Virus record (IMG/VR): IMGVR_UViG_3300047472_000155
Location: 64,001 to 128,000 of that record
DNA length: 64,000 nt
Direction: 5' to 3' (one strand)
Source of the DNA: a virus
Below, piece after piece: positions 8,909 to 58,110 of this stretch (position 1 is its first letter; every line of letters starts with the position of its first letter). The translations under genes were made by a program, and so were the position numbers. The notes under the pieces are model-generated. The model was given only the letters and a program-made list of their open reading frames with translations. It did no database searches and was not told where the DNA came from.

Positions 8909-9076
8909 ATGAGTGCGTTCATGTATTACATTTTTTTTGGCGGTATGCTTACTATCGGTTCTTATTTTCTTGGAAGGTACGATGCTAATCGCATTAACGC
9001 CAAGAGATTAAAGAGAAAGAAAATTAAAGATGCCGAGTGGTTAAAAAAATGTCAAGATATAAAAATAGAGTCATAG
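8909..9076 (+). CDS. small membrane-anchored ORF (55 aa, not in the ORF track)
   Basis: AGGGG RBS, MSAFMYYIFFGGMLTIGSYFLG...; its TAG stop is the first three bases of the palindrome at 9074. Confidence 0.6.
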   Translation: MSAFMYYIFFGGMLTIGSYFLGRYDANRINAKRLKRKKIKDAEWLKKCQDIKIES

Positions 9077-9097
9077 ATAAAACACATCTTTTATCTA
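9074..9097. repeat. palindromic site 1, TAGATAAAA-N6-TTTTATCTA
   Basis: tagataaaa cacatc ttttatcta. Confidence 0.9.
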
Positions 9098-9114
9098 CAG
9101 GGAGGATTAATAAA

Positions 9115-9435
9115 ATGTTAAAAACTGATTGGCTTATTAAGCCAGTAATATCTCTTGGATCAATGACTCATTGCATTTTTGCACCAAAAGACGATGAAGA
9201 CTTGACAATTTTAGTTAAAACAGATACAGAATCGGAAGCATGGGAAAAGCTAGGTGCATTATTGGGTAAGGAAGATAAGGGGAATGTTGAGACAGAAATT
9301 TTTGAAGGTGTCATAAATGTATATAGTTGCTACGGAGTTGAAAAAGCAGACGTTAGTTTCGGAGTAGCCAGTAGACTCACTGAATCCCTTGTAAAATATA
9401 AGGGAAAGCGTGTTAAGGTTACAGTAGAAATTTAA
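9115..9435 (+). CDS. paralog family A member bracketed by palindromic sites 1 and 2
   Basis: GGAGG RBS just after site 1; MLKTDWLIK...ESEAWEKLGALLG...VETEIFEGVI. Confidence 0.8.
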   Translation: MLKTDWLIKPVISLGSMTHCIFAPKDDEDLTILVKTDTESEAWEKLGALLGKEDKGNVETEIFEGVINVYSCYGVEKADVSFGVASRLTESLVKYKGKRVKVTVEI

Positions 9436-9438
9436 GGA

Positions 9439-9462
9439 TAGATAAAATCCGAGTTTTATCTA
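9439..9462. repeat. palindromic site 2
   Basis: tagataaaa tccgag ttttatcta. Confidence 0.9.
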
Positions 9463-9478
9463 TTGAGGGGAGGTAAAA

Positions 9479-9913
9479 ATGATGGTAAAAGCAAGAGTTA
9501 TAAAATTAACTGATCCAAATGGTTACAACTATAGAAATGATTGTGTAGACAAATTATTCGATTTAATTAGTATTGATTATGATGATACTTTGGGAAGATT
9601 ATTTACATTAGATACAACAGAATTATTGGGTTGTATTACGGTTTGGACAGAAGATTTTTTAAGCAACGACAGGAAAGAATTAGTTTTACCTGACACTATT
9701 ATAGAACGTCTTTCCAAGTCAGTGAGAGAATTTGAATATTTTGCTGATAAAGCAGAAAAAAAAGGTAATTACATTGAAGCACAAAAACTTAGGAGTTCAT
9801 CAGAAAGAGCGCGTTTAAGAATAGAAAAGAAAAGGAATGAGAGGGAAAATCCTATTGACCATTCCGAATTAACACCGTTAGAGATTGTAAGGATTAATTT
9901 AAAAAGGGAGTGA
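9479..9913 (+). CDS. paralog family C member (KLTD...TLDTTELLGC.T.W)
   Basis: N-terminal ~60 aa shared with 10119..10487. Confidence 0.75.
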   Translation: MMVKARVIKLTDPNGYNYRNDCVDKLFDLISIDYDDTLGRLFTLDTTELLGCITVWTEDFLSNDRKELVLPDTIIERLSKSVREFEYFADKAEKKGNYIEAQKLRSSSERARLRIEKKRNERENPIDHSELTPLEIVRINLKRE

Positions 9914-10118
9914 AAAACACATGTACATTACGCGCGAACAACGAGAAGAAGCTAGGCAGTACGTGCAACAGAAGTATGGTCACTATTGCAATAAAGCACG
10001 ACAAATGAATGTTAATCCCAGTATCTTATACTACGTTCAAGCAAGAATTTAATAAGGATATGAACGCTTCTATACGTTCTATTGTAGAGAAACTAAATAA
10101 ATAGGAGTGGATAATACT

Positions 10119-10487
10119 ATGAAAGCAATAGTCAAAAAGCTTACAGATGAAACAAAATACAACTTTAGGAATGAATGCGTTGGATTACCATTCAAAGTAC
10201 TGAAATTTGAAGACAAACTTTTTGGTGGCTTGTATACGTTGGACACAACTGAACTATTGGGTTGTGTCACAGCTTGGAAAAGTGAATTCTTGAATCTATT
10301 CCAAGATATCAAATTGGAAGGGGAATTCAAAGATGCTGATTCTTTCCAAGGCATCGTTAAGTTGGATCATGATGCAAACTTTGCATCATGCTACATTGAA
10401 GGGTTTGACGGACAAGACTCATCTATATATTTGAATAAATTTCAAGGGAAAAACGTAGTTATGATCATTAAGGAAATTACTATATAA
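10119..10487 (+). CDS. paralog family C member with a family-A-type C-terminal module
   Basis: KLTDETKYNFRNECV...TLDTTELLGCVTAW, followed by FQGIV...KFQGKNVVMII. Confidence 0.75.
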   Translation: MKAIVKKLTDETKYNFRNECVGLPFKVLKFEDKLFGGLYTLDTTELLGCVTAWKSEFLNLFQDIKLEGEFKDADSFQGIVKLDHDANFASCYIEGFDGQDSSIYLNKFQGKNVVMIIKEITI

Positions 10488-12954
10488 ATAATAAGGGTGG
10501 TGTAAAAGATGCCAATTAAAACAGGAAAAAGAATGAGCGCAGCAGAAGCTGTTGCCAATCATTTAGGTTGGGATATTGCTGATGTTAAAGATGCACGTTA
10601 TAAATATGGTCATACATCTACACCAGTGTTTACCTCAGAAGATTACTACTATTGTGCATCTAAAAGTGATGGCAAGCCAGCTACCCGCTATCTTGCAAAT
10701 GATAGTTGGGATTGGGTTCAATGTGTACCCAATAACCCATTGAATGACAAGGTTAAGTGGATTGTCTGGAAGGCACATATGAACAAGTAGGAGATGATAC
10801 CATGATTGACAGCGGACTAACTACAATTGAAAATGCAAGAAATTTATTTGAATCATTTTACAAAGAAGAGTCAAATATTCTTATAAAGATCAAATTAAAA
10901 TGTTGGATCAATCATTCGGAAAGCAGACATAAAAACAACAACTATCCTTTTTCATATGGAAATTATTCTATGTTCTTAAAGGAAATTGATATGTTGCTAC
11001 AAGTTAATTATGACATGATTGATTGTAGCGATATTGGCGGTAAAGAGTATGTCATTGAGTTTTTGAAAAATAAAATAAAATAAGGAGGTTAATTTTATGA
11101 AAATTAAGTTTCGTGAAATAAGTGTTAGAAGTGGTGATTATCACGTTTTGTTAGAAGCCTATAATGAAAATGGTGATCATGAATACGAGATATTCAACAG
11201 AACTTTGCCATTCCAAAACTTTCGAAGAGGTAGACTTATCAAGAAGTTAAAAAGAAAAATGGAACAGCTTTATTCATAAGGAGTGTAAGAATATGAATAT
11301 GTTGGCGATTATTATAATTTCAATGATAGCGTTGCTTATTGAACGCATCTCAATGAAAAATGACAATTTGCACTAATAAAATATAAAATAAAAATTATTT
11401 TACCAGTTTTTTGACATCCCCGACAACTTGATATATACTTAAATAAGTTAGATTAATCAAGGGGGATTTCACATGCCAAAAAAATTCTTTAAAATCGGAG
11501 TAAGTGAACTAATTGATGGTAAAAAGTATTATGGTCTGTTTATATCAAATAATGAAGAATTTGCATGTGATTACGAATCGTTTGTAAGAGGCTGGGAGCT
11601 TAGTAAATTTGAAAACTTGAGTAATGAAGCGAAAGAGGAATGGATAAACGAATTGAAGAAAGATAGTCAGGAAGCCACAGAAGTAAAGTGATTTGTGAAT
11701 ATATAGGGATAGATTTCTCTGTGGGAGAAGTTATTCCTATTATCTTCATAAGTATTTGATATAAAGGGACGTATGATAATGTACGTCCCTTTATATTTGA
11801 GGAGGACTGTTAAATGAATGCATATGAAGAATTAGAGCATTCCAGAGTAGTCAATGAATTAATGGAAGTTAAGGAAAAGATTAAACAAATGTTTCATATT
11901 GATCATGAAATAATCAAATGGAACTACACTAAGGCAAAGCAATGTGATGATCAAGCATCTGTTACAGTGTGGAGAAGCCTTATGATTGCATCGTGCAATG
12001 ACCACAGTTTTGAAGACATGTTTGAAGAAGATGGAACATATCTAGGTTTCATTTGCAAACATTGTACCGCGAACAGTGATGATGACGATGCCGAAAATGT
12101 AAAGCTTATAGTTCAAAGAAATTGTGAAACATGTACATTCAGGGGAGGAGGATCAGATTCGATATCTTGTAAACATCCGACCATAGATACATTAGAAGAT
12201 GTTCAGATTGATGAATGGATGAATAAGTATTTCAATGACAGTAAAAATTGTGTTCATTGGAAAGGAAAAATTGATTAAAATAAGTGTTGCAACATCGTAA
12301 ATTGTATGATAAGATAAGGTCAATGAAAGATAAAACTAAATCAAGGAGTGATTTAAAATGCCATTGAATATTCCTGTGGTGAAAAGTTTGGTTACTTATA
12401 GGTTGGAAGATGAAAGATTCGCTGGTACGTATGGAGAAGGGAAGAGGGTTATCTTAGACCTTTTGGATTTATCCGATTATCAAGGTAGTCTTGAACGTAT
12501 CGAAATGTACAATCCATTCGGTAGCATTGTAAATGAAAATTATGAAAATGGACATAAAGAAGCGTTCGAAACCAGAACTTCTGGTGTAATTACTTACTAT
12601 AGGGAATTGAAATCAAATATAGGTTTGTTGCCTATCCCTATTAAAGTAATTTTTGAAATTGAGTATGTCTTAACCATTGAAACAGGTGATGACGAAATTG
12701 CATTTATGATTGGCGAAAAGGTTGAAGGATTCACAACAGAGTAAAACTTTCAAATATATTTTTTGCAAAATGTTTAAAGGCTTTGAATTCGGTTTATAAT
12801 GATATCATCAATGAAAAACGCCATAAAGTAACGGATTAAAAAAGTTTATTTTTTCCAAGAAAAACGTTGACTTCACTATTCATAAGTGATATGATGAAAT
12901 CAACCAATAAACAAGTAAAATAAAAACAAAAAACGAAGGGTAAAGGTGATTATC

Positions 12955-14529
12955 ATGGCAAAGGGCGGCGCGGCAACAGTAAATGGATCAAGAAGAGGAC
13001 AGGGTGGCAAGACAACAACTCCACCAAGCGATTCTCAATTGACACTGGTTGACCAAGAAAAGGAATTGGAGCTTGATATTTTCCACAAAACAATGGGCAT
13101 TCGTTCTATTGTAGAACAAAGACGACTTATCAAGTTTGACATGGCGATTCAACGTAATGAAGTTTGGAAGGAAACAAAGGATGTGCATCAACAGTCACTC
13201 CTTATTGACTCCATTCTTCGGAAGTATCCAATTGGTCAAGTGTTCGTTATTCAAATGGGTGACGAATTCATGTGGATGGCTGATGGTAAACAACGTTGGA
13301 CAACAGTGTTCAAATTCATTGACAACAAATTCGCACTTGCCAAGGGTATTCGTCCCGTAAAGGCAAAGGATAACGAAACAGGCGAAGTCAAGGTGTACGA
13401 TATTGAAGGGAAATTCTTCAAAGACTTGGATAAAGTACTCCAATCAAAAATTATGGGGTACGAAATGGATGTCAAATTCCTCCAAAATGCTACACCAGCA
13501 GAGATTGAGGAAATCTTCCTTCGACTCAACAATGGTACACCATTGACCAAGATCGAATTAACACGTGTCGAACTTGGAGAGGTAAACATGATCAAAATTT
13601 CGGATATTGCCGAAAAACGTTTCTTCAAAACCATGTCATTCATTTCCGAAACGTCACGCAATCGCTTTATTGACCATGAAATGATCCTTCAAACGCTTAT
13701 GATCATTATGGACAGAGAATCCGGAATTTCAGGAAATGAAATCCGTGAATTTGCCAAGGCGATTAAGGTAAATGGCATTTCCGATGAAGTTATCAATGTT
13801 ATGAAAGGAACATCAGACTACCTTGCAGACGCATTCGAACAATTTGTTACGATTAAGGATGGCAAGGAAGAAATGCCATTCCTGAATAAAATGCTCAAAA
13901 AGGTTCATGTACCTATCATCTTTGCAACGGCTTATGAAGCCATCTATAAAGATGGAAGAGAGCTTGAGCCAGAAGTATTTGGATTGTGGGTGAAGTCATT
14001 CCTTGTCGACCGTAAAACTCCTATTGATTACAAGGACGCTACGGCAGGCGGTTCTGCTAAAAAGGATCAAGTCAATACTCGACTTCGTGAAATGAAAAAA
14101 GATTTCAAAAAGCACATTGAAAATGTGCAAAAAACATGGGAAGAAAATGAACCTATTCGTTTGAAGCTCAAACAAGATGCCGAAGAAGAGGCGGCACGAT
14201 TGGCGAAACTTGCAAACCCTGATGGTGATGGTGGAACTCATGAAAATGGTGGCAATGGTGAAGGTGATGGTGAAACGCCTCCTTCTGACTTGAATACACC
14301 TCCAAATGATACACCTCCAAGTGACGAAGAGGATAATACACCTCCTTCGGAAACTCCTCCAGTTGACGATGGAGAGAATGTTTCTTCCAATGATTCCAAT
14401 GATTCGAATGAAAATGGTGAAAATGGTAAAAACGGTGAAAGTGGAGAGCCTAATTCGGATAACGATGAAGGCACTGACAAGGACAAAGAACCGGAAAGCA
14501 ATGGTTCCGAAGATGGTTCCGAAGAATAA
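12955..14529 (+). CDS. DUF262 (ParB/Srx-like, GmrS-type) domain protein with an acidic Pro/Asp/Glu-rich tail
   Basis: IQRNEVW, LLIDSIL..YPIG, DGKQRWTT, IF.RLNNG.PLT; tail of TPPS repeats and D/E/N/G; no HNH domain. Confidence 0.88.
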   Translation: MAKGGAATVNGSRRGQGGKTTTPPSDSQLTLVDQEKELELDIFHKTMGIRSIVEQRRLIKFDMAIQRNEVWKETKDVHQQSLLIDSILRKYPIGQVFVIQMGDEFMWMADGKQRWTTVFKFIDNKFALAKGIRPVKAKDNETGEVKVYDIEGKFFKDLDKVLQSKIMGYEMDVKFLQNATPAEIEEIFLRLNNGTPLTKIELTRVELGEVNMIKISDIAEKRFFKTMSFISETSRNRFIDHEMILQTLMIIMDRESGISGNEIREFAKAIKVNGISDEVINVMKGTSDYLADAFEQFVTIKDGKEEMPFLNKMLKKVHVPIIFATAYEAIYKDGRELEPEVFGLWVKSFLVDRKTPIDYKDATAGGSAKKDQVNTRLREMKKDFKKHIENVQKTWEENEPIRLKLKQDAEEEAARLAKLANPDGDGGTHENGGNGEGDGETPPSDLNTPPNDTPPSDEEDNTPPSETPPVDDGENVSSNDSNDSNENGENGKNGESGEPNSDNDEGTDKDKEPESNGSEDGSEE

Positions 14530-14540
14530 TTAATCAAATT

Positions 14541-14575
14541 AGCGCCACATGATATATGTGGCGCTTTCTATTATT
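14541..14575 (+). terminator. intrinsic terminator
   Basis: AGCGCCACAT-gatat-ATGTGGCGCT followed by a T-rich tract. Confidence 0.7.
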
Positions 14576-14645
14576 TAGTATAGATTCTCTTGACAAATAA
14601 TTTCAGGGATTTTATACTAAGTAATAGATAAAATGAATTGAAGGG

Positions 14646-15365
14646 ATGATAAAAATGAGTAAAAAAAGTTCTGAGAAGTTGAAAGAAACTATTCAAAAAT
14701 TGCTTGTAAAAGCAGGAGATAGTGGTGCTACTTTAGCAGAAAAAGACGAAGCTTACTTGTTAGCGCAACGACTAATGCTTAAACATAATATAGAAGAAGA
14801 TGAATTATATGAAAAGACACATGAACAAAAACGATTAGAGGAGATATATCATAAGCCAGCGACAGATTATATAAAGCCTAATTTTTGGCATAGAGGGTTG
14901 GCTAGAATTATTTCAACAAACTTTAAATGTATCCATTATTTAGATGGATGGCATGGAGACTACATGTCTAAAGATGCTAATAAATCAAGGCTTATGATGT
15001 TCGGAGTAAGAGAAGATGTTGAAATCGCTGTGCAAGTATATGAAGATGCATTCAAAGCAATTGAAGTATTTTCCAAAGAGTATATAGAAGGGAGAAAAGA
15101 TATTCCTAAAAATAGAAAAACACCAATTAAGAATGACTTTATTTCAGGTTATCTTGAAGGATTAAAATCCAAATTTGAAGATCAAGTTGCGAAATATCAG
15201 CTTGTTCTTGCAGTAAGTGCTCTTGTAACAAAGGAATATGATGATATGGGATTCTCCACAGCAAGAGCAGCAACTAGACTTACCGCACATGATCAACATG
15301 CCAAGGCTCAAGGATACGTCAAAGGTAGAAACTTTACTGGGGCGAATAAAGAACTTTTGAAATAA
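14646..15365 (+). CDS. DUF2786-domain protein
   Basis: IQKLL.KA...GAT..E...A...AQ.LM.KHNI N-terminus; W...LA..I..NF.C. Confidence 0.8.
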   Translation: MIKMSKKSSEKLKETIQKLLVKAGDSGATLAEKDEAYLLAQRLMLKHNIEEDELYEKTHEQKRLEEIYHKPATDYIKPNFWHRGLARIISTNFKCIHYLDGWHGDYMSKDANKSRLMMFGVREDVEIAVQVYEDAFKAIEVFSKEYIEGRKDIPKNRKTPIKNDFISGYLEGLKSKFEDQVAKYQLVLAVSALVTKEYDDMGFSTARAATRLTAHDQHAKAQGYVKGRNFTGANKELLK

Positions 15366-16080: not shown

Positions 16081-16467
16081 ATGGGAATGCTAAAAACAAA
16101 GTGGACTATTGAACGTTGTGGAACATATGCTGACAAAAATACATTGTGGCATTTCACATCAAGTGAAGATGATTCAACTTCACTTTATTTGAGAGCTGTT
16201 GACGAAGACAAAGCTTGGAACAAGTTAGGTAATCTATTGCACAAAGATGGGAAAGAAGCGTGGGAAGAGTTGGGCAAGTTATTGGACAAGGAAGAAGATA
16301 CATCAACTAAAACCTTTGAAGGTAAAATAATTTTAAGAGATATGTACGATTTAATTTTCTTTGACAATTATAGACCATCAATACCCACTCTTCACGAAAT
16401 GCTTATCCATGGTGGAATTGGAGAGGTAGAGGTAGAAGTCAGAGTTAAATCATTGAAAGGAGAGTGA
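16081..16467 (+). CDS. paralog family A member
   Basis: MLKTKWTI...W.F...DEDKAWNKLGNLL...EAWEELGKLL...TFEGKI (the EAW helix is duplicated). Confidence 0.75.
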   Translation: MGMLKTKWTIERCGTYADKNTLWHFTSSEDDSTSLYLRAVDEDKAWNKLGNLLHKDGKEAWEELGKLLDKEEDTSTKTFEGKIILRDMYDLIFFDNYRPSIPTLHEMLIHGGIGEVEVEVRVKSLKGE

Positions 16468-16472
16468 ATGAA

Positions 16473-16790
16473 ATGCTAAAAGATAGTTGGTATATTAAGC
16501 AAAAAAGTTGCGGGAATGATGGAACAGATTGGCACTTTCAATGTTCTAAGGACGAAGATTACATGATTCTAGTTCTTGCACCTACAGAATCGGAAGCATG
16601 GAAAAAGCTAGGTGTGTTATTAAATGAAAATGTTGAGACAGAAGTTTTTGAAGGTGTTATAAGTTCATGTAGTTTTTCCAGTCTTGAAAGTGCATTTGTG
16701 ACATTTAAAGTAAGTCAAGATTGTGCAACATCCCTTCTTAAACTTATGAATAAGAAAGTCGATGTTCAGTTAAAATTAAGGGATAGATAA
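16473..16790 (+). CDS. paralog family A member ending inside palindromic site 3
   Basis: MLKDSWYIK...TESEAWKKLGVLL..NVETEVFEGVI; DNA tract ACAGAATCGGAAGCATGG shared with the 9115 ORF. Confidence 0.8.
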   Translation: MLKDSWYIKQKSCGNDGTDWHFQCSKDEDYMILVLAPTESEAWKKLGVLLNENVETEVFEGVISSCSFSSLESAFVTFKVSQDCATSLLKLMNKKVDVQLKLRDR

Positions 16791-16807
16791 AAACTTACTT
16801 TTATCTA
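16784..16807. repeat. palindromic site 3
   Basis: tagataaaa acttac ttttatcta. Confidence 0.9.
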
Positions 16808-18513: not shown

Positions 18514-19317
18514 ATGAAAAGTCAAATTGAATTGAAGAAAGTACTTAATGAAACGTTGGAAACTTACAAACATAATAAGAATGTTTTGGAAAATGTCAAA
18601 ACACTGATGCAGAATTTTGGAATATTTAGAGGTGAAACACAAAAGATATTTACAGGAAAGACACTTTTTGAGGACATGAACAAGAGAATACTCATATTGA
18701 TTACTGATTCATTGCATCGAAGTACAAATGTTCACAACCTCAATCCTTACGGATACTTTTCTGATAAGGAGATCAAGGAAGCAAAAGCTCAAGAAATTGT
18801 AATTGAAACTGAAACAAGTGAATTTCCCATCACAATACATAATGCTATCAAAAAAGCCGAAGACACTTTTATCGCATTTGTCAAGGCGAAAGACATTGTT
18901 GCTCTTTACAATTCCAATCTCTTAGGCTATAATTATAGAATAAGTAATCAATACAAGATGGTACAAAAAAACGGCAAGTTGATTCAGACAATTGATATCA
19001 ATACCAAAGATGTAAAAGACATTGCACAAAAGATACTAAATAACGTTTACAACATGAATACAATCATTTTAAATGTTTTAGTAAATTCAAGCTTCTCTAC
19101 CGGAAAAAATGAAATTGAATATTCAAATGACACATTGACAATCAATGAAAGTACTGTAGAAATTATTAGTGGACTTCATGATTTGAGCGCTCTTGCTTAC
19201 ATTCTTGAAGACAACAAGAATATTGAATTGAAGGTTGAACTAATGGTCAAACACTATAACTCAGAACAAATGATAAACTTTTACAATGAACTAAATATAA
19301 AGGGTGGTGTAAACTAA
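18514..19317 (+). CDS. SPbeta YopQ(SroE)-like, DndB/ParB-like protein, shortened and degenerate
   Basis: lies directly upstream of the YopR-like gene; YFSDKEIKEA, L.YNY..., I.LN motifs; IISGLHD at the position of the usual IIDGxHR. Confidence 0.6.
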   Translation: MKSQIELKKVLNETLETYKHNKNVLENVKTLMQNFGIFRGETQKIFTGKTLFEDMNKRILILITDSLHRSTNVHNLNPYGYFSDKEIKEAKAQEIVIETETSEFPITIHNAIKKAEDTFIAFVKAKDIVALYNSNLLGYNYRISNQYKMVQKNGKLIQTIDINTKDVKDIAQKILNNVYNMNTIILNVLVNSSFSTGKNEIEYSNDTLTINESTVEIISGLHDLSALAYILEDNKNIELKVELMVKHYNSEQMINFYNELNIKGGVN

Positions 19318-20294
19318 TGGAAAAGCATGAACTCTACAATGAAGAAGTAAAAGAGGATTTCTTGTCACAGAAGCATTTTTCAGAAGGGACAAGAGTTGTC
19401 TATCGTAGAATCTTTGAAAAAAGCAGAGCCAATGAAGAAGTCCTGAACAAGGATTTGTATGACTTCACAAGACAAGAGATTGAAGAGGTTCTGCATGATC
19501 TTAATCCATTGACACCTCCAATATCTCAGTCCAATGGAAGAGTTATCAGCTCATACATTATTTGGTGGATAGACAAGAATAAGCTTAATAAAATCAATCC
19601 ATTGGAGGCAGTTGGTGCCGAATGGTTTGATAGATTCGTAGATAAAACCAAGAAACTTTATTTTTCATATAAGGAAATCAAAAGAATTGTCGATCTATGC
19701 GAGAATGCTCAAGATGCTGTAATACTTCTATCATACTTTGAGGACATTGGTGGCAAAGATGGAAGTGAAATCAGAAATTTAAAAATCACTGATTTAGATG
19801 AAGACCTTAACACAGTAATTTTACGTGAAAAAGGTAAGACTCCAAGAGTACATGTTATCAGTGATGAATTGAAAAAGCTTATCATCTCAGCATCCAAACA
19901 AAAGACTTACATCAAAAAGGATGGTAAGATGATTGAAATTGATAACATTCGTCCAGACATTGACTTGGTTGAAAACGAATATGTTGTCAGAAATTCTTTG
20001 ACACGCACAGATTCATTGAATTCACCAGTTCATTCGTCAGTAATTTATCGTAGAATGAAGACGTTGAGTGAGTCGTTTGGCTTTCCTTACTTGACAGGTA
20101 AAAATGTGTTGAGATCAGGAATAATCTACTTTGCCTGGAAACTTCTGCAACAAGAAGGAGCACTTGGTAAAGAACAATATGAAAAAATTGCAGAAAAATT
20201 TAGATTGAAAAACTGGTATACACTAAAGGATTTTTGCAACTATGAAACCATTGAGAAGTTATACGGTGAAGTTGCTGCTACAATAAGTGCATAA
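19317..20294 (+). CDS. mrpR: SPbeta YopR/MrpR(SroF)-like master repressor with a tyrosine-recombinase fold
   Basis: 325 aa; YN.EVKE.FL, IF.K....E..LNKDLYDFT..EI, N.QD.VIL...FE, SEI.NL, LVENEYVV, LT.K.V.RSG match the YopR family as I recall it; the canonical R-HxxR-Y catalytic set is incomplete. Confidence 0.8.
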   Translation: MEKHELYNEEVKEDFLSQKHFSEGTRVVYRRIFEKSRANEEVLNKDLYDFTRQEIEEVLHDLNPLTPPISQSNGRVISSYIIWWIDKNKLNKINPLEAVGAEWFDRFVDKTKKLYFSYKEIKRIVDLCENAQDAVILLSYFEDIGGKDGSEIRNLKITDLDEDLNTVILREKGKTPRVHVISDELKKLIISASKQKTYIKKDGKMIEIDNIRPDIDLVENEYVVRNSLTRTDSLNSPVHSSVIYRRMKTLSESFGFPYLTGKNVLRSGIIYFAWKLLQQEGALGKEQYEKIAEKFRLKNWYTLKDFCNYETIEKLYGEVAATISA

Positions 20295-29229: not shown

Positions 29230-29247
29230 AAGGGAGATGAATATATA

Positions 29248-30135: not shown

Positions 30136-30154
30136 AAAAGGAGATGAAATAAAT

Positions 30155-35293: not shown

Positions 35294-36022
35294 ATGGCTA
35301 TCATTTTTATTGATGATGAAATTCGTGGACAATTAGCTAATTCCATTAGACTTACAAGAGACTTGTATAGTAAACCAAGTAATATCCTGTTGGCTCACCC
35401 TAATGGAATTGATTATATCGTATTGAAGAATAGGCATTATTATAATCACCAAAAACAAGTTCGTCCATCGGATATTAATGAATATACTAAGTTAAATGTA
35501 GATGTTGTTAGATATACTTTTATTCGTCTAGGATTTATTTTAGGGGCAAAAGAGTTAAATTTAAACGGCATGAATTTGCTGATTGATGAGGATTTTTTGA
35601 ATCCTAATGGAAAGAAAATTTTAAAGGAGATGATTAGCGTGAGTGAGAATAATTTTGAAATTGGAGATAAAGTAGTGCCAATTGGAGATAGTATATATAT
35701 TTCATTGGAAGAAGCTGTTGCTTGGGAAGAAGCAAATGAAATCAATCAACCGTTCCTTTATGTTGTTGGATTTAGTAAAGAAAAAGGAAAAAAATCGGTT
35801 AATGTAACTGCATATTTAAATGGTGATGGACATCGGAGTTACTTTGAAAAAGAAAATTTAAAGCATTATGAAGAACCAAAAACAGGAGTCAAGGAATTGG
35901 AGGAAGTAGAAAAAGAAACTCATGATGATCCTCTTGAATGCACAATTGAGGAATTAAGTATTCTTATTAAAACAGGAATTCTTCAACCCCAAGATATTGT
36001 ATTGGTCAAACGTATAAAATAG
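35294..36022 (+). CDS. protein with a C-terminal paralog family B domain
   Basis: FEIGDKVVP....W......Q.FLYV....F..E.L..Y.E...I.EL..LI..GI....D. Confidence 0.7.
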   Translation: MAIIFIDDEIRGQLANSIRLTRDLYSKPSNILLAHPNGIDYIVLKNRHYYNHQKQVRPSDINEYTKLNVDVVRYTFIRLGFILGAKELNLNGMNLLIDEDFLNPNGKKILKEMISVSENNFEIGDKVVPIGDSIYISLEEAVAWEEANEINQPFLYVVGFSKEKGKKSVNVTAYLNGDGHRSYFEKENLKHYEEPKTGVKELEEVEKETHDDPLECTIEELSILIKTGILQPQDIVLVKRIK

Positions 36023-36282
36023 TGAATACAAGTAATAGATAAAACGAAAGGAATGGGAAGCATGAGCATAATGAATATAGCAGATATCGTTTTTGAGCAA
36101 ACACATGACTTTAAATTCATTATTAGAAAAAGCAAAGTAAGTAATGTTGGTCATACGTGTAGTTCAGGTGTGGTAGAAGATGCATTTAATAGTTGGGTAT
36201 ATAGAGTTTTGATAATTGATTCAGAAAACAATATTTTATCAGATAACAAGGTGGAACGAAAAGGAATTGCAAAAATACTGGA

Positions 36283-36306
36283 TAGATAAAACCAAACTTT
36301 TATCTA
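36283..36306. repeat. palindromic site 4
   Basis: tagataaaa ccaaac ttttatcta; overlaps the stop of 36053..36289. Confidence 0.9.
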
Positions 36307-36327: not shown

Positions 36328-36651
36328 ATGAGCGAGATTTCATATATGAATATTGAAGAATTCTTCAATGATGGCTATTTGCAAGAAGTCAATAGAAGAT
36401 TCTTTCATCCTCTTGGATTGGCTCTAGAAGTTAATACTCATGAGGACGGAACCAAGACTTTAGGTGGTATTTGGGACTATCGTGAAGACCCAGAAGGAAT
36501 AAGGTTTTCTGATGGTATTACAAAACTTGAGAAGTTTAAAAGTCGTGCAGAGAGATTCGATGAATTATTTCAAAAAAGACTACTTGAGCGCTATAACCTT
36601 CTAGGATATGGAATTCAAGAGCCTACTAATGGAGATGATCAAAATGTATAA
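36328..36651 (+). CDS. conserved phage hypothetical protein
   Basis: GYLQEVNRRFFHPLGLALEV...GGIWDYREDPEG; AGGAGG RBS just after site 4. Confidence 0.75.
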   Translation: MSEISYMNIEEFFNDGYLQEVNRRFFHPLGLALEVNTHEDGTKTLGGIWDYREDPEGIRFSDGITKLEKFKSRAERFDELFQKRLLERYNLLGYGIQEPTNGDDQNV

Positions 36652-36955
36652 AAAAGGTGATAAAGTAAGACCAATAGCAAAGACTGTAGGAATGTCTTGG
36701 GAAAATTGTTGTGCTAAAGCCGAAATGGAAAGACTAAATCAAGATTTCCTTTATATTACCCGCGATTATCTAAACAATAGGTTTGGCTGCAATGTTATGG
36801 ATTGTGATGGTGTTTTGAGCGAATTTGCTTTTAGTGATCTTGAGCCATATGAAGAGTATCCAAATCTCATAAAAATAAACAGAGATGTGTTACTTGAATT
36901 GTTGCAAAAAGACATTTTCAAGGAAGATATTCGGTTTTACGTGTCTAAGCCATAG
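36644..36955 (+). CDS. paralog family B member ending in palindromic site 5
   Basis: MYKKGDKVRP..K..G.......QDFLYIT...F...DL.PY.E; TAG stop = start of the site. Confidence 0.75.
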   Translation: MYKKGDKVRPIAKTVGMSWENCCAKAEMERLNQDFLYITRDYLNNRFGCNVMDCDGVLSEFAFSDLEPYEEYPNLIKINRDVLLELLQKDIFKEDIRFYVSKP

Positions 36956-36976
36956 ATAAAATGTGAATTTTATCTA
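36953..36976. repeat. palindromic site 5
   Basis: tagataaaa tgtgaa ttttatcta. Confidence 0.9.
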
Positions 36977-43168: not shown

Positions 43169-44600
43169 ATATACATTAAGAGCCGGATAGAAATTACAGG
43201 GAGGTAATAAATGGATAAACCATCTTTTATTGTAGGAGAACCATATTTAGATTATTTTGATGTTATGAAATATTTACAAGAAAAATACGAGTTCACGCAT
43301 AGCGAAAAAAGACATTTTTGGAAATGGATTTTAGATGATTCAATGAATGATGTTCATAATGGATGTTTTATTTATCTTCCCATATATAATTTTCATGAAA
43401 GATATTACATTCAAGACATTGAAAAATTTAACGATGATCATCCAATTGTTGTTGAAATTATCAACATGTTATGGAACGAATATGGCAAAGAAGATTTGAA
43501 GTTTTATGTGTCTTGGTAAATTAAAGTATGCGAAGGAGACATTAAAATGGAAGAATACATTGAATTATGGACTTGTCATAATGGAATTCAATTATTGAGT
43601 AATAAAAAATTCTTTTGGGCAACTGATAAAAAAGGTAATGAATGTAAGTTTCCTGTTGAGGTTCAAAAAGAATTTGTAGAAAAGTTTACTGACAATTATC
43701 ACATTAATCCTAAAGGTGTAAAAGAGATTTGTGACTATACGAATGTAAGATAAAATAAAAAAGGAGATGTAATTGTGCGAAACACCAAACTGTTTATTGG
43801 TTCAAAGATTGAACAACCAAGAAATATTTATCTTCTTGACATTAAATTGATGCATGGTGATGCAGACGTTTATACGCATTTAGAACTTAAGTTTAAAGAT
43901 GTAGAGAAAAATGAGTTGATTGCCACTATTGATGTCTTGAGCCAGTTGATTCCATGGGATTACGAACGATATCATAAAATACAGGGTTTCTCAGAACTTC
44001 TTTCCGATGATTGGAATTCAGATGTAACTTGTGATGAATTTCTTGCATCGTATGATAGACACGAATTATATTATTTCAACCAAGATGGTGAAAAGTTTAA
44101 TGTTAAGGTAGTAAATTAGAAGGGGAATAAAAAAACATGTATGAAAAATTTCATCATGGCGGTGGTCATCATGGCAGAACACATGATGCAACCAAATTAG
44201 CACCCATAATGCTTAAACGTCCTAAGTCAAAAACACGTAAATATCCTATTGCTCAACATGGTAACATTAATATGTTTTGCGGTGATACCGCTAAAAAGTT
44301 AGCCAAACAAAGACACAAAAAGAAGTCAAGGAGCTACAATAAGAAAATGTGCGAACAAACAAACTAGGAGGAACTAAAATTGGACAATGTAGAAATTGAT
44401 GATGAAATCATTATTACAAATGCTGGATTGACTTTGGGAGACTATAACAATGGTCAGGTCATGATTGTAAAATCAGTAGATAAATATGGTGTAATTGTTT
44501 ATCCCTATAGTGATGATGAAGGTGATGTTACATTTATTAGTCATGATGAATATGAAATTACAAAAAAAGAAAATAAAATTAAATAGGAGAGTGGAAGGAA

Positions 44601-50281: not shown

Positions 50282-51892
50282 ATGGCAGTAAAGACAACAG
50301 CACCTCAGATGAAAAAGGAAGACTGCTTAGAGAAAGCAAAAGAGGAGGTTGTAATATCAGAAGCATATCTCACCGCTTTGTTTTGGTCCAATCCAGATCA
50401 ATATGCATTCTTTCCAGAAGAAAAGATAAATCGTAAAACATTCTTGAATCCAGTATGGGGGTTCTATTTTGGACTTGGAATGCACATGTACAAAGAGGGT
50501 ATTCGTTCATTTGACGATATATCAATAATGAAGCATGTTAAAGATATAAATGCTGAAAAGACCTTCGACAAATATGGGGGATTTGATACGGTAAGCGAGG
50601 TAATGGAGGAGGTTGAGGGAAGACTTGAAAATCTTGATGCCTACTATGCCAATATAAAGAAATATAGACTACTTTCCGATTTGTCAGATTTATTTGGAAC
50701 TCAAGTATTTAAGACTTCGGAAAAATATGATTATCATAAATTTGACAAAGAAAGTTTATTCACATTTTGGATGGACAAAGTAAATAAACTTGGACTTGAT
50801 GGTGATGCAAGATATGATGAACATTTTCTATTAGATGGACTTGAAGATGACATTATTGAATGGAGTGAAAGTCCAGATGTTGGATTACCTTTTTATAGTA
50901 GTCCACTTATGACTAAGATATGCACAGGTTGGGATTATGGTAATATGTATATCTATGGTGGGTTTGGTGGTTCAGGTAAAACATCATTGACATTTAATAA
51001 AATAATTATGTCATGTATTGAAAATCAAGAGAAGTTATTGATTATTGCAAATGAGCAAGGAATCAAAGAGTTTAAGAAATTGCTTATTGCAACTGCATTG
51101 GGTATTAAGAAAGAATACTTGAAACGTCAACGATTAAACGAAGGAGAATTTACTGCCGAAGAGAATAAAAAGCTTGAAAGTGCAGTAAAATGGGTTAGAG
51201 AGTTCTCGAAAGACAATAATAAACTTATTGCTTTCACCTTTATGGAAGACTACGTAATAAAAGATGTAAAGAAACTTATTCGTCATTATGCCAATCGTGG
51301 ATATAAATCGGTTCTTATTGATACAGGTAAGCCAAGCGAATCAGCAGGTGATAAGCAACGTTGGGAAATATTCACAGATGACTTTAAAGAGCTTTACAAA
51401 ATGTGTAGACCTAATGGTGGTGGCTTAAATCTTAGAATGTGGGTTAACGTTCAATTAGCAGATAACGCATTGGGACGAAGATTCTTAGATGAAGCAGCAT
51501 TTGGTGACTCTAAGAAGATCAAGAATGAGGCATCTGTTGTGTTTATGGGTAGAAACGTTTGGGAAGATGAGTTTGAGGGAGGAGACAAAGAATTAAAGGT
51601 ATTCAAGTGGGTTCCAAAAGGATCAGAAGAAGATGACAACCCTTTCTCAGACGAAGAAAAGAATGACAACGGATTTGATCTTATGAAGAAGGTGTTTACT
51701 CTTAAAAGATTCCATCAAGACAAACATGGAAACCAACATCCTTGTCAATACCTTTTATTGTTCACTCCTAAGAATCGTAGAGGAACAGATCAAAAAGGTG
51801 GTCAACATGTACTTGTATTACAATCAAACTTTAATAGTAACACATGGTATGAAATCGGTTGGACTACTATTCACAATGATAGAAATTACTAA
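50282..51892 (+). CDS. DnaB-like replicative helicase (YorI-like)
   Basis: GGFGGSGKTS Walker A, IANEQ, VLIDT.K, VQL, SK.IK..A, KNR.G. Confidence 0.85.
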   Translation: MAVKTTAPQMKKEDCLEKAKEEVVISEAYLTALFWSNPDQYAFFPEEKINRKTFLNPVWGFYFGLGMHMYKEGIRSFDDISIMKHVKDINAEKTFDKYGGFDTVSEVMEEVEGRLENLDAYYANIKKYRLLSDLSDLFGTQVFKTSEKYDYHKFDKESLFTFWMDKVNKLGLDGDARYDEHFLLDGLEDDIIEWSESPDVGLPFYSSPLMTKICTGWDYGNMYIYGGFGGSGKTSLTFNKIIMSCIENQEKLLIIANEQGIKEFKKLLIATALGIKKEYLKRQRLNEGEFTAEENKKLESAVKWVREFSKDNNKLIAFTFMEDYVIKDVKKLIRHYANRGYKSVLIDTGKPSESAGDKQRWEIFTDDFKELYKMCRPNGGGLNLRMWVNVQLADNALGRRFLDEAAFGDSKKIKNEASVVFMGRNVWEDEFEGGDKELKVFKWVPKGSEEDDNPFSDEEKNDNGFDLMKKVFTLKRFHQDKHGNQHPCQYLLLFTPKNRRGTDQKGGQHVLVLQSNFNSNTWYEIGWTTIHNDRNY

Positions 51893-51911
51893 TTACAAAG
51901 GAGAGATAAAA

Positions 51912-53354
51912 ATGAATAACAACTTAGAAACGGCAAGAGATTTGTTGGATCAAGCAAGTGAATATATTTCAGACGCGAAATGGGTGGAGCAATTTAAACA
52001 ATTGCTCCAAACTCCATCAAATGAATACCAATCACCAAGATCAAGAGAGCTTATTAAAAAACTATATTTGCTACAAGGTAAAACAATATTGACAGGTCAA
52101 CATGATTATATTGAGTCGCCATATTCATATTCAAGTAAAATTTTAGGATTAACAGGATACAATACAATGATTAAGGGAGTTGAATTCGGAGGGATTACTG
52201 GTCAAGATGCTGCCACTCTATTCAAACAAAGACAGGGTATTGTTGATGCTTGCAAAGCATGGGATGCTAAAGATGGAATTGTTTCAGCAACATATCATGC
52301 ATCATACCCAGGATTGCTAAATACTTGGAGCAACGTTCAACGTGCTACAACACAAGCCGAATTTGATCAAATTATAACACCAGGAAATAATTTTTATAAG
52401 GCTTTGATTGACGACCTTGACATTTTAGCTAATCATCTTTCAGTATTGAGAGACAATGATATTCCAGTTTTGTGGCGACCATATCATGAAATGAATGGTG
52501 GATGGTTTTGGTGGGGAAAGAAAAACAACTTTAAAGCGCTTTGGAATATCATGTACGACAGGTTTGTAAATGTTCATGGTCTTGATAATCTAATTTGGGT
52601 GTGGTGTCCAAATGCTAAAAACGCATGGTGTGATGACATTGAAAACTATTATGTAGGAACATCTAAGGCTGATGTATTAGCGTTGGACATCTACAATAAT
52701 GACTTTAAACAAGAGCATCACGATTCATTATTGAAACTTGGAAAAGGAAAGCTTATAGCGATTGGTGAAAATGGAGAACTGCCAAGCATATCAAAACTTA
52801 TAACGACACAGAATAAGTATTCATGGTTCATGACATGGGGTAGTATGCTTAATGAAAACAATAAAGATGATGTGATCAAAGAAGTATATGGCAATAGTTA
52901 TACTCTTAAGAGAGGTCAAGAATACTCTCCATTTGGAGATGGTCTTAAAGGAGAATACTTTGATGGCGTTAACTTTAATACATTAAAGCTTACTAGAATT
53001 GATAATAATATTAATTTTAATTGGGGTGGCAATAAACCAGTTGATTCATTAAAAGCTGACAACTTCTCTATTAGATGGAGTGGTTACATTTTGCCTAAGT
53101 ATAGTGAGCAATACAAATTTATTATTCATTCTGACGATGGAGCAAGATTGATCATTAATAATGTAATTGTTGCGGAAAGATGGAAAAACGGAGATAGTTG
53201 GATTTCTGGAATAGTTGATCTTGTTGCTGGTGTTAAATATCCTATTACTGTAGAGTATTATGATTCAACAGGTGCAGCGGTGATTGATTTAATTTGGTCA
53301 AGTGCTTCTCAAGTATCTCAATTGATTCCTAAAGAACAATTATATTCAAAATAA
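51912..53354 (+). CDS. GH26 beta-mannanase-like glycosidase with a C-terminal PA14 domain
   Basis: GQH, PVLWRPYHEMNG.WFWWG, NLIWVW, D.LALDIY, IGENG; GLKGEYF...RID..INFNW...DNFSIRWSG...SDDG.RL...YPI.VEYY. Confidence 0.92.
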   Translation: MNNNLETARDLLDQASEYISDAKWVEQFKQLLQTPSNEYQSPRSRELIKKLYLLQGKTILTGQHDYIESPYSYSSKILGLTGYNTMIKGVEFGGITGQDAATLFKQRQGIVDACKAWDAKDGIVSATYHASYPGLLNTWSNVQRATTQAEFDQIITPGNNFYKALIDDLDILANHLSVLRDNDIPVLWRPYHEMNGGWFWWGKKNNFKALWNIMYDRFVNVHGLDNLIWVWCPNAKNAWCDDIENYYVGTSKADVLALDIYNNDFKQEHHDSLLKLGKGKLIAIGENGELPSISKLITTQNKYSWFMTWGSMLNENNKDDVIKEVYGNSYTLKRGQEYSPFGDGLKGEYFDGVNFNTLKLTRIDNNINFNWGGNKPVDSLKADNFSIRWSGYILPKYSEQYKFIIHSDDGARLIINNVIVAERWKNGDSWISGIVDLVAGVKYPITVEYYDSTGAAVIDLIWSSASQVSQLIPKEQLYSK

Positions 53355-53997: not shown

Positions 53998-54026
53998 TTG
54001 ACAAATAGAAGATAAAATGATATAAT
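53998..54026 (+). promoter_or_regulatory. sigmaA promoter with the operator in its spacer
   Basis: TTGACA aatagaagataaaatga TATAAT. Confidence 0.88.
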
Positions 54027-55464: not shown

Positions 55465-56080
55465 GAGGATTTTTGTTTAATGCAATTATCGGATCGTTGT
55501 TGTGTGGATTTTTTCTCAGTACGTTCGATATAGATGCTAAATTTACTGCATCACTTAATGAAATGTTTCCTAAAAAGCATTTCAAAGGAAACTCGATTTA
55601 TTACATGCTATTTTTTATAGCAGGAGTAGTTATTGGTTTGGTCAACTTCTTTATCTAATAACAAATGTAAGATAAAATAAAAAATAACTTATTGGAGGAA
55701 TTATAAAATGGCTAAATATTACGCAACCGGAACAAAGAAAGTAGAAGTAAAGAACGAACAAGGAAAGAAAAGTGTTGTAGAGACTCCAGTTGTTATTGAA
55801 TTTGATAGCTTGATTGTGAATACTCGCGTACAAGCGGTTAATGAAGCAAAACGATGGGCAAAGAAGGATAGCATTGTTCTTGATGGCATTGATGGAGTAC
55901 ATGTTTTGCAAGGCACACAGAAAGGTGGAGATACGTTGACAAAACGTATTCAAGTCTTGAAAGCTACAGGTAAATTGCCTAAGTTCTAATTGCAAAGGGC
56001 TTTTATAGGAAAGTATAAAAGCCCTTGAAATAAATTAACACAAATGCAATATAAAATAAAAAATGAGAGAAGGAATTTAA

Positions 56081-56668
56081 ATGATGAATCCAGAGAAACT
56101 TTTTTACGAACAGTTGGAAGTAACAAAACAAATGGTTGAAGAACTTAAGAATATCAATAGCAAGCTTTCTGAAATTAAATCTAAAATTGACCAGAGCAAG
56201 GATAGTTCTCCATTTAGTGTTGAAGATTTTCTTAGTGGTATTTTTGGAATTGATACTACAAATGGTTCACTACTTGCTACGGAACTTGAAGATGATCTTG
56301 AAGATGAGCTTGATAGTCTTTTTATTGATGGTTATGATGATGATGACGATAATGTTAATAATCTTGACCTTCTTGAATTGTTGGCAATCGAGGATGTAAT
56401 TGATCTTCTTGATTCTAAACAGTTGCCATTTACATTTTATGGAGCTAAAAAATACGGATATGAGCCATACAGTGATAGTGATGTTACTTTTGTAACTGAT
56501 TACTTTAATAACAAAGTAGTGGCAAAACTTTGGTTCAATGGAGAGCTTGCAAAAGAAGGTGTTGCAAAATGCGATCCATCAGATGTATTCATTGAAGAAA
56601 CTGGAAAAGCAATTGCATTGCGGCGGTTGTTTGATCTCAACATTCCAGAATCATTGCTTCAACATTAA
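56081..56668 (+). CDS. acidic phage protein with a C-terminal GxAKCxPxDxF motif
   Basis: GVAKCDPSDVFIEETGKAIALRR. Confidence 0.7.
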   Translation: MMNPEKLFYEQLEVTKQMVEELKNINSKLSEIKSKIDQSKDSSPFSVEDFLSGIFGIDTTNGSLLATELEDDLEDELDSLFIDGYDDDDDNVNNLDLLELLAIEDVIDLLDSKQLPFTFYGAKKYGYEPYSDSDVTFVTDYFNNKVVAKLWFNGELAKEGVAKCDPSDVFIEETGKAIALRRLFDLNIPESLLQH

Positions 56669-57278
56669 TTAATAGGAGATGTGACTTATGACGCAAAAGC
56701 AATTAGACATCATTGAGTTTACTAAAAACGTTCTAAACAAGCACATCTTCGATTATGAAGAGAAAATTTTAAAAAACTATGATGAATTCCGTTCGTGGTC
56801 AACCTATGATGAATGGGTTAGACCACAGAAACGGGAAAACCAGTACATCTACAATATTTGGATGTGCTATAATGAGTACCTAAATGGAACGCTTGATTTG
56901 AACGCAATGAAAATTTCAAACTTGGTGGTGAAGTAAGTTGGAAGTAAGGGTTGATAAAATTGTCGAACCAGAAAGTCTTGACCTTGGAGATATTGTAGTA
57001 CTCAATTGTGACGATGAAATTTATGTAACTTTAGTGACACTGATTCCTGGCAAAGAACTTTCTTTTTGCTTAGTTGGATTAAATAAAGGAAATGTTTGGT
57101 CTTCCGCAAAAACTCTTGAGAAGCTATACGAAGATACTAGAGATAGGTATCCATTTGAAAAATATAGTTTCACAATTTACAAGTCCTCAAAATATTTATT
57201 ACAATTAACTAAAAAGTAACACCAAAAGCCCATAGAGACGTAAAAGTTTTTGTGGGCTTAACTTTTAAGGAGGATAAC

Positions 57279-57677
57279 ATGAAAAAGAAATCATTTTTTA
57301 AAACTTTATTTTTAGCAAGCTTCGTAGTCATTCTTGGTGCTTGTTCCGATGCTGATATTGCATCCGAAAACTTATCAAAAGCCGCTGACAACTTTGAAAT
57401 CAATAGACGAGTTGTGTTTTACAACGGAATTACAGACACTTACTTGTTGACCATTGAAGGACTTTGTTCGTTAGGCAATGACGATGACCGCTCTAAGCAA
57501 TTGACGGTGACATGCAAAACATCTCCAACTACTTACAAGAAGCATTTCTTAGGATTGTCGGACAATGTTACTTATATTGCCGAACAACTAGAACCAGCAA
57601 GTGTTGGTGTATATCATTATCGTGTTACATTTAAACCACAAGTCATCTTGCCAGATATTGACCTGAGAATTGAATAG
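57279..57677 (+). CDS. conserved phage lipoprotein
   Basis: lipobox LGAC; ADIAS.NLS.AADNFE..RR.VFYNGITD.Y. Confidence 0.85.
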   Translation: MKKKSFFKTLFLASFVVILGACSDADIASENLSKAADNFEINRRVVFYNGITDTYLLTIEGLCSLGNDDDRSKQLTVTCKTSPTTYKKHFLGLSDNVTYIAEQLEPASVGVYHYRVTFKPQVILPDIDLRIE

Positions 57678-57680
57678 CCA

Positions 57681-57704
57681 TAGATAAAACGTTTCTTTTA
57701 TCTA
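57681..57704. repeat. palindromic site 6
   Basis: tagataaaa cgtttc ttttatcta. Confidence 0.9.
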
Positions 57705-57727
57705 CTGAAAAATAAGGAGGAAGCAAA

Positions 57728-58078
57728 ATGTATAAATTAGGTGACAAAGTAGTGCCACACGACAAAAGTAGAGGTTGTAACTTGAAACATTCCAGAGAAT
57801 GGGAAAAGGCAAAGAGTAATTATCAAGAATTCCTTTATGTTACTTGCATTGATGACGATAACGATATATGGTGTGCTTATAAGAATCATGATGTTCAATC
57901 TGAAGTTTTTATCGAAGAAGATTTAACACCATATATTGAAGAAAAAATCGAAGGAAAGGTACTTTTTCAAGAAAATATGGGTGTAAAATACACAGAATTA
58001 AAGGTAAAAGACCTAATTGACCTAGTAGATAAGGGGATTGTCAAGGAAACAGATGTGATTATCGTGGGTCGAAAATGA
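57728..58078 (+). CDS. paralog family B member bracketed by sites 6 and 7
   Basis: MYKLGDKVVP..KS.G......W......QEFLYVT...F.E.DL.PY.E...DLI.LV..GI. Confidence 0.8.
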   Translation: MYKLGDKVVPHDKSRGCNLKHSREWEKAKSNYQEFLYVTCIDDDNDIWCAYKNHDVQSEVFIEEDLTPYIEEKIEGKVLFQENMGVKYTELKVKDLIDLVDKGIVKETDVIIVGRK

Positions 58079-58086
58079 AAAAGTGA

Positions 58087-58110
58087 TAGATAAAACTTCG
58101 ATTTTATCTA
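58087..58110. repeat. palindromic site 7
   Basis: tagataaaa cttcga ttttatcta. Confidence 0.9.

Follow-up and report, generated by a model that had tools for sequence, protein, structure and literature searches.

Conserved palindromes at gene junctions of a distant SPbeta relative coincide with homology breakpoints between related phages

A family of palindromes of the form TAGATAAAA-N6-TTTTATCTA occupies gene junctions in a 64,000-nt stretch of phage DNA (the window), which represents bases 64001-128000 of the IMG/VR phage record IMGVR_UViG_3300047472_000155 (G000; 166,838 bp). The motif is real, it is conserved in related phages and it coincides with the points at which the homology between these phages breaks off. 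With middling confidence we favour the explanation that the palindromes are protein-bound DNA sites which also serve passively as short recombination linkers, resembling in this respect the promoter-early stem-loop (PeSL) sequences of T4-type phages. G000 is a distant relative of Bacillus phage SPbeta, with which it has in common tail and terminase genes, RecJ, a PolIII-type polymerase and nrd genes; homologs of yopP, yopQ and yopR are present as well. All gene positions given here are based on crude open reading frame (ORF) calls.

Seven perfect copies of the palindrome are found by exact matching in the window, and 100 dinucleotide-preserving shuffles contain none. If up to three mismatches are permitted, the window gains just one weak match. 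The seven sites, to which no strand is assigned, are the following, RBS standing for ribosome-binding site:

9074..9097: junction palindrome with spacer CACATC; its TAG terminates the ORF at 8909-9076 and an RBS comes next
9439..9462: junction palindrome with spacer TCCGAG; together with 9074 it brackets the ORF at 9115-9435
16784..16807: junction palindrome with spacer ACTTAC, between a family-A paralog and an HNH endonuclease gene
36283..36306: junction palindrome with spacer CCAAAC, which is identical in three phages
36953..36976: junction palindrome with spacer TGTGAA; together with 36283 it brackets the ORFs at 36328-36955
57681..57704: junction palindrome with spacer CGTTTC, an exact match
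58087..58110: junction palindrome with spacer CTTCGA; together with 57681 it brackets the ORF at 57728-58078

The arms comprise 9 bp each (10 if the flanking A/T is counted), which gives 24 bp per site with a 6-bp centre that is different at each copy. When arm spacings from 0 to 14 bp were scanned in G000, 6 bp was the sole spacing found. A scan of the complete record, as had been proposed earlier, raises the number to ten palindromes spread across 135 kb, nine of them perfect and one with a single terminal mismatch; the reversed-pattern control across the whole of G000 gives no match. Each palindrome occupies the interval that separates a stop codon from the following RBS. Four of the window sites overlap the stop codon of the preceding ORF (ORF ends 9076, 16790, 36289 and 36955), and a Shine-Dalgarno sequence with a start codon follows 1-15 nt downstream on the coding strand at all ten sites, two of which lie among minus-strand genes. 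An earlier note on this DNA had listed the seven perfect sites with their positions and spacers, had placed all of them at gene junctions with four overlapping the upstream stop, and had described most of them as closely followed by an RBS. The palindrome observation is confirmed in every detail; the junction position and the neighbouring RBS even apply to ten out of ten sites in G000.

Three pairs of sites bracket short coding units:

9115..9435, plus strand: bracketed cassette of paralog family A, whose other members are located at 8435-8884, 16464-16790 and 58141-58497
36328..36955, plus strand: bracketed cassette whose two ORFs overlap and encode a phrog_3954 protein and a family-B paralog
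57728..58078, plus strand: bracketed cassette of paralog family B, whose other members are located at 35294-36022 and 36608-36955

A sigma-A-like promoter was sought inside the three bracketed units and none was found, in agreement with their earlier description as promoterless. The assignment of bracketed and adjacent genes to paralog families holds too, as genes adjoining the sites figure in nine of the 14 paralog pairs of G000. Searches of the bracketed and adjacent genes against Pfam, PHROGs and the ESM Atlas return only the HNH endonuclease, phrog_3954 and a VG64/recombination directionality factor (RDF)-like protein. The gene for the latter (57252-57677; PF25682 at 9.6e-54, phrog_478) is situated directly upstream of site 57681. 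An early-region gene annotated as RDF is also found in each of the phages Tsamsa, PBC2 and Izhevsk.

The behaviour of the sites in evolution becomes visible by comparison with G001, a 170-kb relative whose coding DNA is 70-80% identical to that of G000 (71% identity for the MrpR protein treated below), and with L199 and L326, two contigs of one relative that is closer than G001. All ten orthologous sites are retained in G001 with identical arms, and 57 of the 60 spacer bases are the same (P about 2e-4 at 77% flank identity). Regarding the 40-nt flanks, at almost every site one is homologous to G001 (0.68-0.95 identity) and the other one is at random level (0.20-0.47). At six of the ten sites an edge of chained BLAST homology is no more than 3 nt away from the site boundary, and at nine no more than 30 nt. 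For E1, a second repeated element at junctions, the corresponding numbers are four and 16 of 52 copies (P about 6e-4 and 7e-4 versus the sites). At the level of genes, breakpoints were found at eight of nine scored site-holding junctions versus 103 of 250 other junctions (P about 0.005). The earlier note had suggested testing whether presence/absence breakpoints between relatives fall at the sites, and the comparison with G001 bears this out.

The individual sites illustrate how variable the exchanged side is. Replacement affects the upstream side at 9074, 36283 and 57681, and the downstream side at 9439, 36953 and 58087; since the replaced side may be either one, the site travels with neither neighbour. 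At site 9074 homology to G001 is confined to the right flank, its edge being 2 nt away, the same distance as at site 36283. Three genes on the right of site 9439 are without ortholog in G001, and the three genes on the right of site 36953 are missing from G001 and present in L326. G001 has an additional gene of about 356 bp directly on the left of site 57681, and at site 58087 a left flank with 95% identity is followed by a right flank at random level. In the L199/L326 relative three sites are kept with the same spacers, and their neighbours agree partly with G000 and partly with G001. The spacer of site 16784, for instance, is the same in L199 and differs by 1 nt in G001. A gene for a 78-aa protein at 36053-36289 is specific to G000, having been sought in both G001 and L326 and found absent. 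It carries on both flanks an 11-nt direct repeat made up of the left arm and one spacer base, the upstream copy being:

36035..36045, plus strand: solitary left arm with the first spacer base, a direct repeat of the start of site 36283

The same pattern is obtained in independent lineages, to which the breakpoint comparison was extended in line with the earlier proposal to include related phages. Tsamsa, Izhevsk and PBC2 carry sites with identical spacers in the same order, with at least six identical pairs versus about 0.02 expected by chance, and the 200-nt flanks and adjacent ORFs of these shared sites are unrelated on one or both sides (blastp E<=1). In Tsamsa, gp57 has a site on either side, and the two have 32 nt in common, RBS included, with one spacer base different; Izhevsk possesses a single hybrid site at this position. 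Between SPbetaL4 and SPbeta (SPBc2), the homology upstream of the methyltransferase gene mtbP starts inside the left arm of a palindrome. Because orthologous sites keep their arms and spacer while the neighbours are replaced, and because the homology ends at the sites, these sequences behave as real cassette boundaries, that is, as fixed joints of gene-cassette exchange.

The inner part of the palindrome is much more widespread than the 24-bp form. The core ATAAAA-N6-TTTTAT, counted with a spacer of 6 only, occurs 13 times in SPbeta, 17 times in the phage G002 (IMGVR_UViG_3300037249_000709), 17 times in Geobacillus virus E3 and 13 times in Clostridium phage c-st, and Tsamsa contains 12 copies within a 41-kb early region. 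The chance expectation is about 0.2-1 per phage examined, and in 1.6 Mb of AT-rich bacterial DNA a spacer of 6 is not favoured. No enrichment was detected in Lactococcus phage 949, Sundance and phiCD211. As the core is enriched across several phage groups, the 9+6+9 sites of the window can be understood, by sequence, as a lineage-specific extension of an old core palindrome common to SPbeta-, Tsamsa-, E3- and c-st-type phages. Nearly all core copies of the Tsamsa-like phages are placed between a stop codon and the next RBS; those of SPbeta and G002 mostly do not adjoin an RBS. The more distant relatives L203, L326 and L328 have asymmetric or degenerate arms with uncompensated changes. Two local arrangements were observed in addition: L203 contains at 7558-8100 three tandem units of a site and a small gene (67, 79 and 76 aa), in which the asymmetric arms end with ATG(T/G)A and run directly into the RBS, and in G002 another repeated palindrome, CCCAATAATTGGG, adjoins junction palindromes near 17210 and 155600.

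Exact-motif scans of IMG/VR, species genomes and metagenomes identified G001 as the sole multi-copy relative. All other matches are single and attributable to chance, and none of the genomes with a single copy carries any of the ten spacers of G000. Consequently the motif is neither a prophage signature in the sampled hosts nor a host regulon; the reading as a host transcription-factor regulon or host prophage signature was rejected on the basis of these single copies per genome and the missing spacer-6 preference in the bacterial background. Literature searches retrieved no description of an ATAAAA-N6-TTTTAT palindrome family. At least two of the SPbeta copies (near 2628 and 116414) are annotated as stem-loops in the SPbeta record.

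Two inverted arms around a centre of 6-8 bp are the core-site architecture of tyrosine recombinases, and with its arm-6-arm geometry the palindrome conforms to this canonical design. An active site-specific system would consist of a tyrosine recombinase that binds the inverted arms, with the 6-bp centres acting as overlap regions that must match, as in heterospecific lox/FRT sites. The sites within a genome would be mutually inert, and cognate sites in co-infecting relatives would recombine and thereby exchange cassettes in register, comparable to the plasmid dif modules of Acinetobacter or to recombinase-mediated cassette exchange. Such a system would account for spacers that all differ within a genome and are conserved at orthologous positions even if both neighbours have been replaced, for breakpoints at the outer arm edge, for promoterless cassettes with paralog families clustering at the sites, and for the near-duplicate sites, one spacer base apart, on both sides of Tsamsa gp57. 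Furthermore, G000 encodes two recombinases that come into consideration. The Xer-like P0170 (G000 12456-13433, outside the window) possesses the complete R, HxxR, H and Y set, and its operon is headed by one of the palindromes. This region (G000 12456-15050, minus strand, outside the window) comprises a consensus sigma-A promoter, a terminator-like hairpin, the junction palindrome and a four-gene operon, the last gene of which encodes the intact recombinase. The second one, the YopP-like P0171 (G000 47342-48436, outside the window), has HxxK instead of HxxR.

However, neither enzyme follows the phylogenetic distribution of the motif, and both were rejected as the cognate recombinase. Homologs of P0170 were found only in phages of the plasmid-prophage type (KKP_3916, Sundance, c-st and phiCD211); the motif-bearing phages Tsamsa and SPbeta have none. 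From the occurrence in c-st, phiCD211 and Sundance it follows that G000 may itself be maintained as a plasmid. Lactococcus phage 949 and Sundance, both devoid of the motif, encode the YopP-like protein, and its match list contains no Clostridium entry although c-st is motif-bearing. The MrpR protein is without the catalytic arginines, no serine recombinase was found in G000, and an integron integrase is likewise missing there (TIGR02249 scores 18.6 bits versus a cut-off of 265). In addition, the arms of relatives are asymmetric, and most indels either have just one end at a full site or involve a half-site; an insert with a full site on each side, as recombination would leave it, was observed once, in the case of Tsamsa gp57. 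Taken together, an active site-specific system appears doubtful. From the integron-like mechanism put forward in the earlier note the cassette boundaries stand as real, but there is no integron integrase, no intact recombinase that tracks the motif and mostly one-ended indels, and an active mechanism of this kind is unproven. The suggested hunt for a tyrosine recombinase elsewhere in the genome succeeded insofar as P0170 is intact, but not with regard to its presence in Tsamsa and SPbeta. It is similarly doubtful that the SPbeta/Tsamsa-type phages own a natural set of mutually inert, self-compatible sites with a unique 6-bp address per locus, at which a protein with tyrosine-recombinase fold exchanges the strands. 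This protein, with a possible partner, could possibly belong to the supposedly dead MrpR or YopP lineage. If true, such address sites would let co-infecting relatives swap accessory cassettes in register and leave their own genomes unscrambled.

Symmetric repressor operators had been offered earlier as the alternative to recombination sites. The relevant features of the window are:

18514..19317, plus strand: YopQ-like gene (blastp versus SPbeta yopQ), the conserved partner upstream of the MrpR gene
19317..20294, plus strand: MrpR/YopR/SroF-family protein of 325 aa with tyrosine-recombinase fold (PF22822 at 5.8e-25, PF22823 at 1e-12)
54001..54018, plus strand: E1 example in a promoter, filling the -35/-10 spacer of a consensus sigma-A promoter
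43739..43756, plus strand: solo E1 example, directly upstream of an RBS
39240, 54001, 60587, 60865 and 63571: E1 promoter copies of the window
3037, 21442, 43739, 49003 and 55661: E1 solo copies of the window

The protein encoded at 19317-20294 matches the structures 8a0a (8.7e-28) and 9rd5 of the PDB, and among annotated proteins it is most similar, at 34-40% identity, to 'integrases' of Tsamsa-like and related large siphoviruses. In the alignment the first catalytic arginine (Arg-I) is replaced and the Tyr retained, which corroborates the view of the earlier note that the MrpR-like protein is catalytically degenerate. The MrpR of SPbeta has lost its recombinase function (PMC10516654). The protein of G000 is a candidate binder of AGATAAAA-type boxes. 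Listing every AGATAAAA in G000 led to E1, an oriented 18-nt element with a AGATAAAA core and about 52 copies, of which 33 are solo and 19 occupy the stretch between the -35 and -10 boxes of consensus sigma-A promoters. For SPbeta MrpR, chromatin affinity purification with sequencing (ChAP-seq) revealed ten targets, all of them at SPBRE sites (PMC10516654). As E1 aligns with the SPBRE copies extracted from SPbeta, it is likely the MrpR (SPBRE-type) operator and as such separate from the palindrome family. G000 possesses a phage-encoded MrpR-family repressor (19317-20294) and also an oriented box between the -35 and -10 of early promoters; this box is E1 and not the palindrome.

The arms of the palindrome nevertheless consist of the same AGATAAAA core as E1, in both orientations. 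It can therefore be asked whether the palindromes are purely operators of the MrpR master repressor, a palindromic form of SPBRE without any role in recombination, so that the breakpoints would reflect the retention of operators by selection. The presence of an MrpR-family gene in the window and the identity of the arms with the core of the promoter-embedded, SPBRE-like E1 are consistent with this idea, as is the finding that SroF of phi3T reads 24 bp centred on A-tracts (10.1101/2025.11.27.690993). Each motif-rich genome examined falls in a genus on the MrpR match list, and three of the 13 SPbeta palindromes are near SPBRE sites (P about 0.01). On the other hand, the genera of Sundance and phiCD211 are on the same list and these phages lack the motif, and ten of the 13 SPbeta palindromes are without a reported MrpR peak, more than 1 kb from any (PMC10516654). 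In Tsamsa the promoter element has diverged and the core of the palindrome is unchanged, which indicates that the two elements evolve independently. The sites are located inside operons and away from promoters, so that the operator role suggested in the earlier note fits E1 instead, and selection for the operator of one gene leaves unexplained why a site is retained amid two replaced neighbours. Purely operator function is thus rather unlikely. In view of E1 and the supergroup-wide core palindrome, MrpR as direct binder of the palindrome was given up as leading explanation; MrpR may nevertheless bind the sites.

Readings of the palindrome as a signal of gene expression at other levels fare no better. 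G000 has about 40 consensus sigma-A promoters, and only the site at 14920 is within 100 nt of one. The sigma-A promoter reading was rejected on account of nine out of ten sites without a promoter and an unsuitable hexamer spacing in the motif. In addition, an intrinsic terminator has a G+C-rich stem and a U-run; the stems here contain one G-C pair each and are followed by an RBS, and the missing U-tract downstream argues that the sites are not terminators, so that this reading was rejected as well. Kissing-loop pairing between spacers was also discarded, three 4-nt matches among 45 pairs (judged by eye) being about chance. It could still be imagined that a hairpin between cistrons, directly preceding the Shine-Dalgarno sequence, acts as processing site, 5' stabiliser or translational coupling signal. 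This RNA element would be in accordance with the co-orientation of all ten sites with an RBS 1-15 nt downstream, with the folding of the window sites at -5.8 to -13.6 kcal/mol (four with z below -2.6) and with variable loops, which are typical of hairpins. But apart from the absent U-tract, the conserved core yields just six A-U pairs, the arms are conserved in sequence and do not covary, imperfect copies in L326, L203 and L328 have uncompensated A-C or G-G mismatches on the coding strand, and the copies of SPbeta and G002 are mostly not beside an RBS. We regard an RNA function as very improbable. The uncompensated arm changes in L203, L326 and L328 and the core of six A-T pairs argue for a constraint on the sequence of duplex DNA, that is, for recognition without requirement for a hairpin.

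According to the explanation we favour, that of protein-bound sites doubling as passive recombination linkers, a predicted phage-encoded protein would recognise the palindrome as double-stranded DNA. The sites, each with its own 6-bp centre, sit between stop codon and next RBS within long operons. Recombination between co-infecting or resident relatives would then resolve inside the site, because nothing else is conserved between accessory genes that are otherwise unrelated. Arms and centre would persist as a fixed joint, and the genes on the left, on the right or on both sides could be exchanged, inserted, deleted or duplicated. The exchange would proceed via short homology (19-33 bp) and be aided by the phage's own Sak4/RecJ-type recombination genes, as in the PeSL cassettes of T4. 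Both the repeat flanking the gene at 36053-36289 and the Tsamsa gp57 site pair look like exchange within short repeats.

Several points weigh against this explanation. In the closest relative, L199/L326, the homology reads through two of the three sites unbroken, and many breakpoints between these phages occur without any site. For homologous recombination, 19-33 bp of shared sequence is little. If the site were purely a linker, it would need no common palindromic arms, so that two functions must be assumed. The palindromes do not overlap sigma-A promoters, and of the 13 in SPbeta only three have one of the ten reported MrpR ChAP-seq peaks (PMC10516654) within about 260 bp. Finally, protein binding, a primary role in regulation or architecture and short-homology exchange without a dedicated recombinase are what we infer. 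Something other than the four explanations ranked here accounts for the remaining probability.

Some neighbouring genes of the window deserve mention in their own right. A block of RNA-repair type at 27072-32559 encodes an Rnl1-like ligase, a kinase/HD (Pnkp-like) protein, a radical-SAM protein, an Rnl2-type ligase and a CCA-adding enzyme. The ORF called at 51726-53354 combines a GH26 glycoside hydrolase (Pfam 3e-47) with a PA14 domain (3.8e-21), and its start lies within the last part of a DnaB-like gene (50282-51892). A GmrSD-N-like nuclease-family protein and a PcfJ-like protein are encoded in the early region (12946-14529 and 44601-46100).

The large temperate phages of Bacillus and Clostridium including SPbeta are highly mosaic, and the palindrome provides a concrete landmark for their modular evolution; moreover, the analysis distinguishes it from the easily confused MrpR operator. 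Should a protein or a recombinase turn out to act on the motif, the sites could represent a natural toolkit of orthogonal sites. Failing this, the PeSL concept of a regulatory motif that doubles as a recombination linker would extend from T4-type phages to Gram-positive siphoviruses.

Among the known systems, PeSL sequences of T4-type phages consist of a sigma-70 promoter and a terminator hairpin of about 50-70 bp in total (PMC2839356, PMC4122927). Like these, the palindromes are a short conserved intergenic motif among accessory genes at which indels and replacements between related phages start and stop, and exchange between nearby copies deletes or duplicates genes. Unlike these, they have neither the strong sigma-70-type promoter nor the terminator stem-loop, and they form a dyad of 18-24 bp with strictly 6 bp between the arms and an individual centre each. 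SPBRE and Phi3TRE (PMC10516654; 10.1101/2025.11.27.690993) belong to the same phage group and share with the palindromes about ten copies per genome, A-tract-rich boxes of about 24-26 bp, an MrpR-family gene, here in the window, and the AGATAAAA core of the promoter element in the palindrome arm. However, SPBRE is oriented, placed between -35 and -10 of sigma-A promoters and read by a monomer, and its counterpart in G000 is E1 with its 52 copies. The pdif modules of Acinetobacter plasmids (PMC13141974, PMC12907356) likewise have conserved arms and a variable 6-bp centre and flank discrete gene modules, which are shuffled between replicons. They differ by distinct 11-bp XerC and XerD arms and the use of the host XerCD; the palindrome arms are identical, and the modules here mostly have a full site at one indel end only.

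The attI/attC arrays of integrons resemble the situation in G000 by promoterless single-gene units with co-oriented palindromic sites between them. G000 has, however, no IntI (18.6 bits versus 265), the sites are dispersed over 135 kb and the units are part of ordinary phage operons. Integron attC sites are long imperfect palindromes that are recognised by structure as single strands, with structure rather than sequence conserved, whereas the palindromes described here are conserved in sequence, with identical arms and imperfect copies that are uncompensated. Heterospecific lox/FRT spacer variants, finally, have been engineered for cassette exchange, and their enzyme is known. As with these variants, identical inverted arms combined with different asymmetric centres would give sites that are mutually inert and self-compatible.

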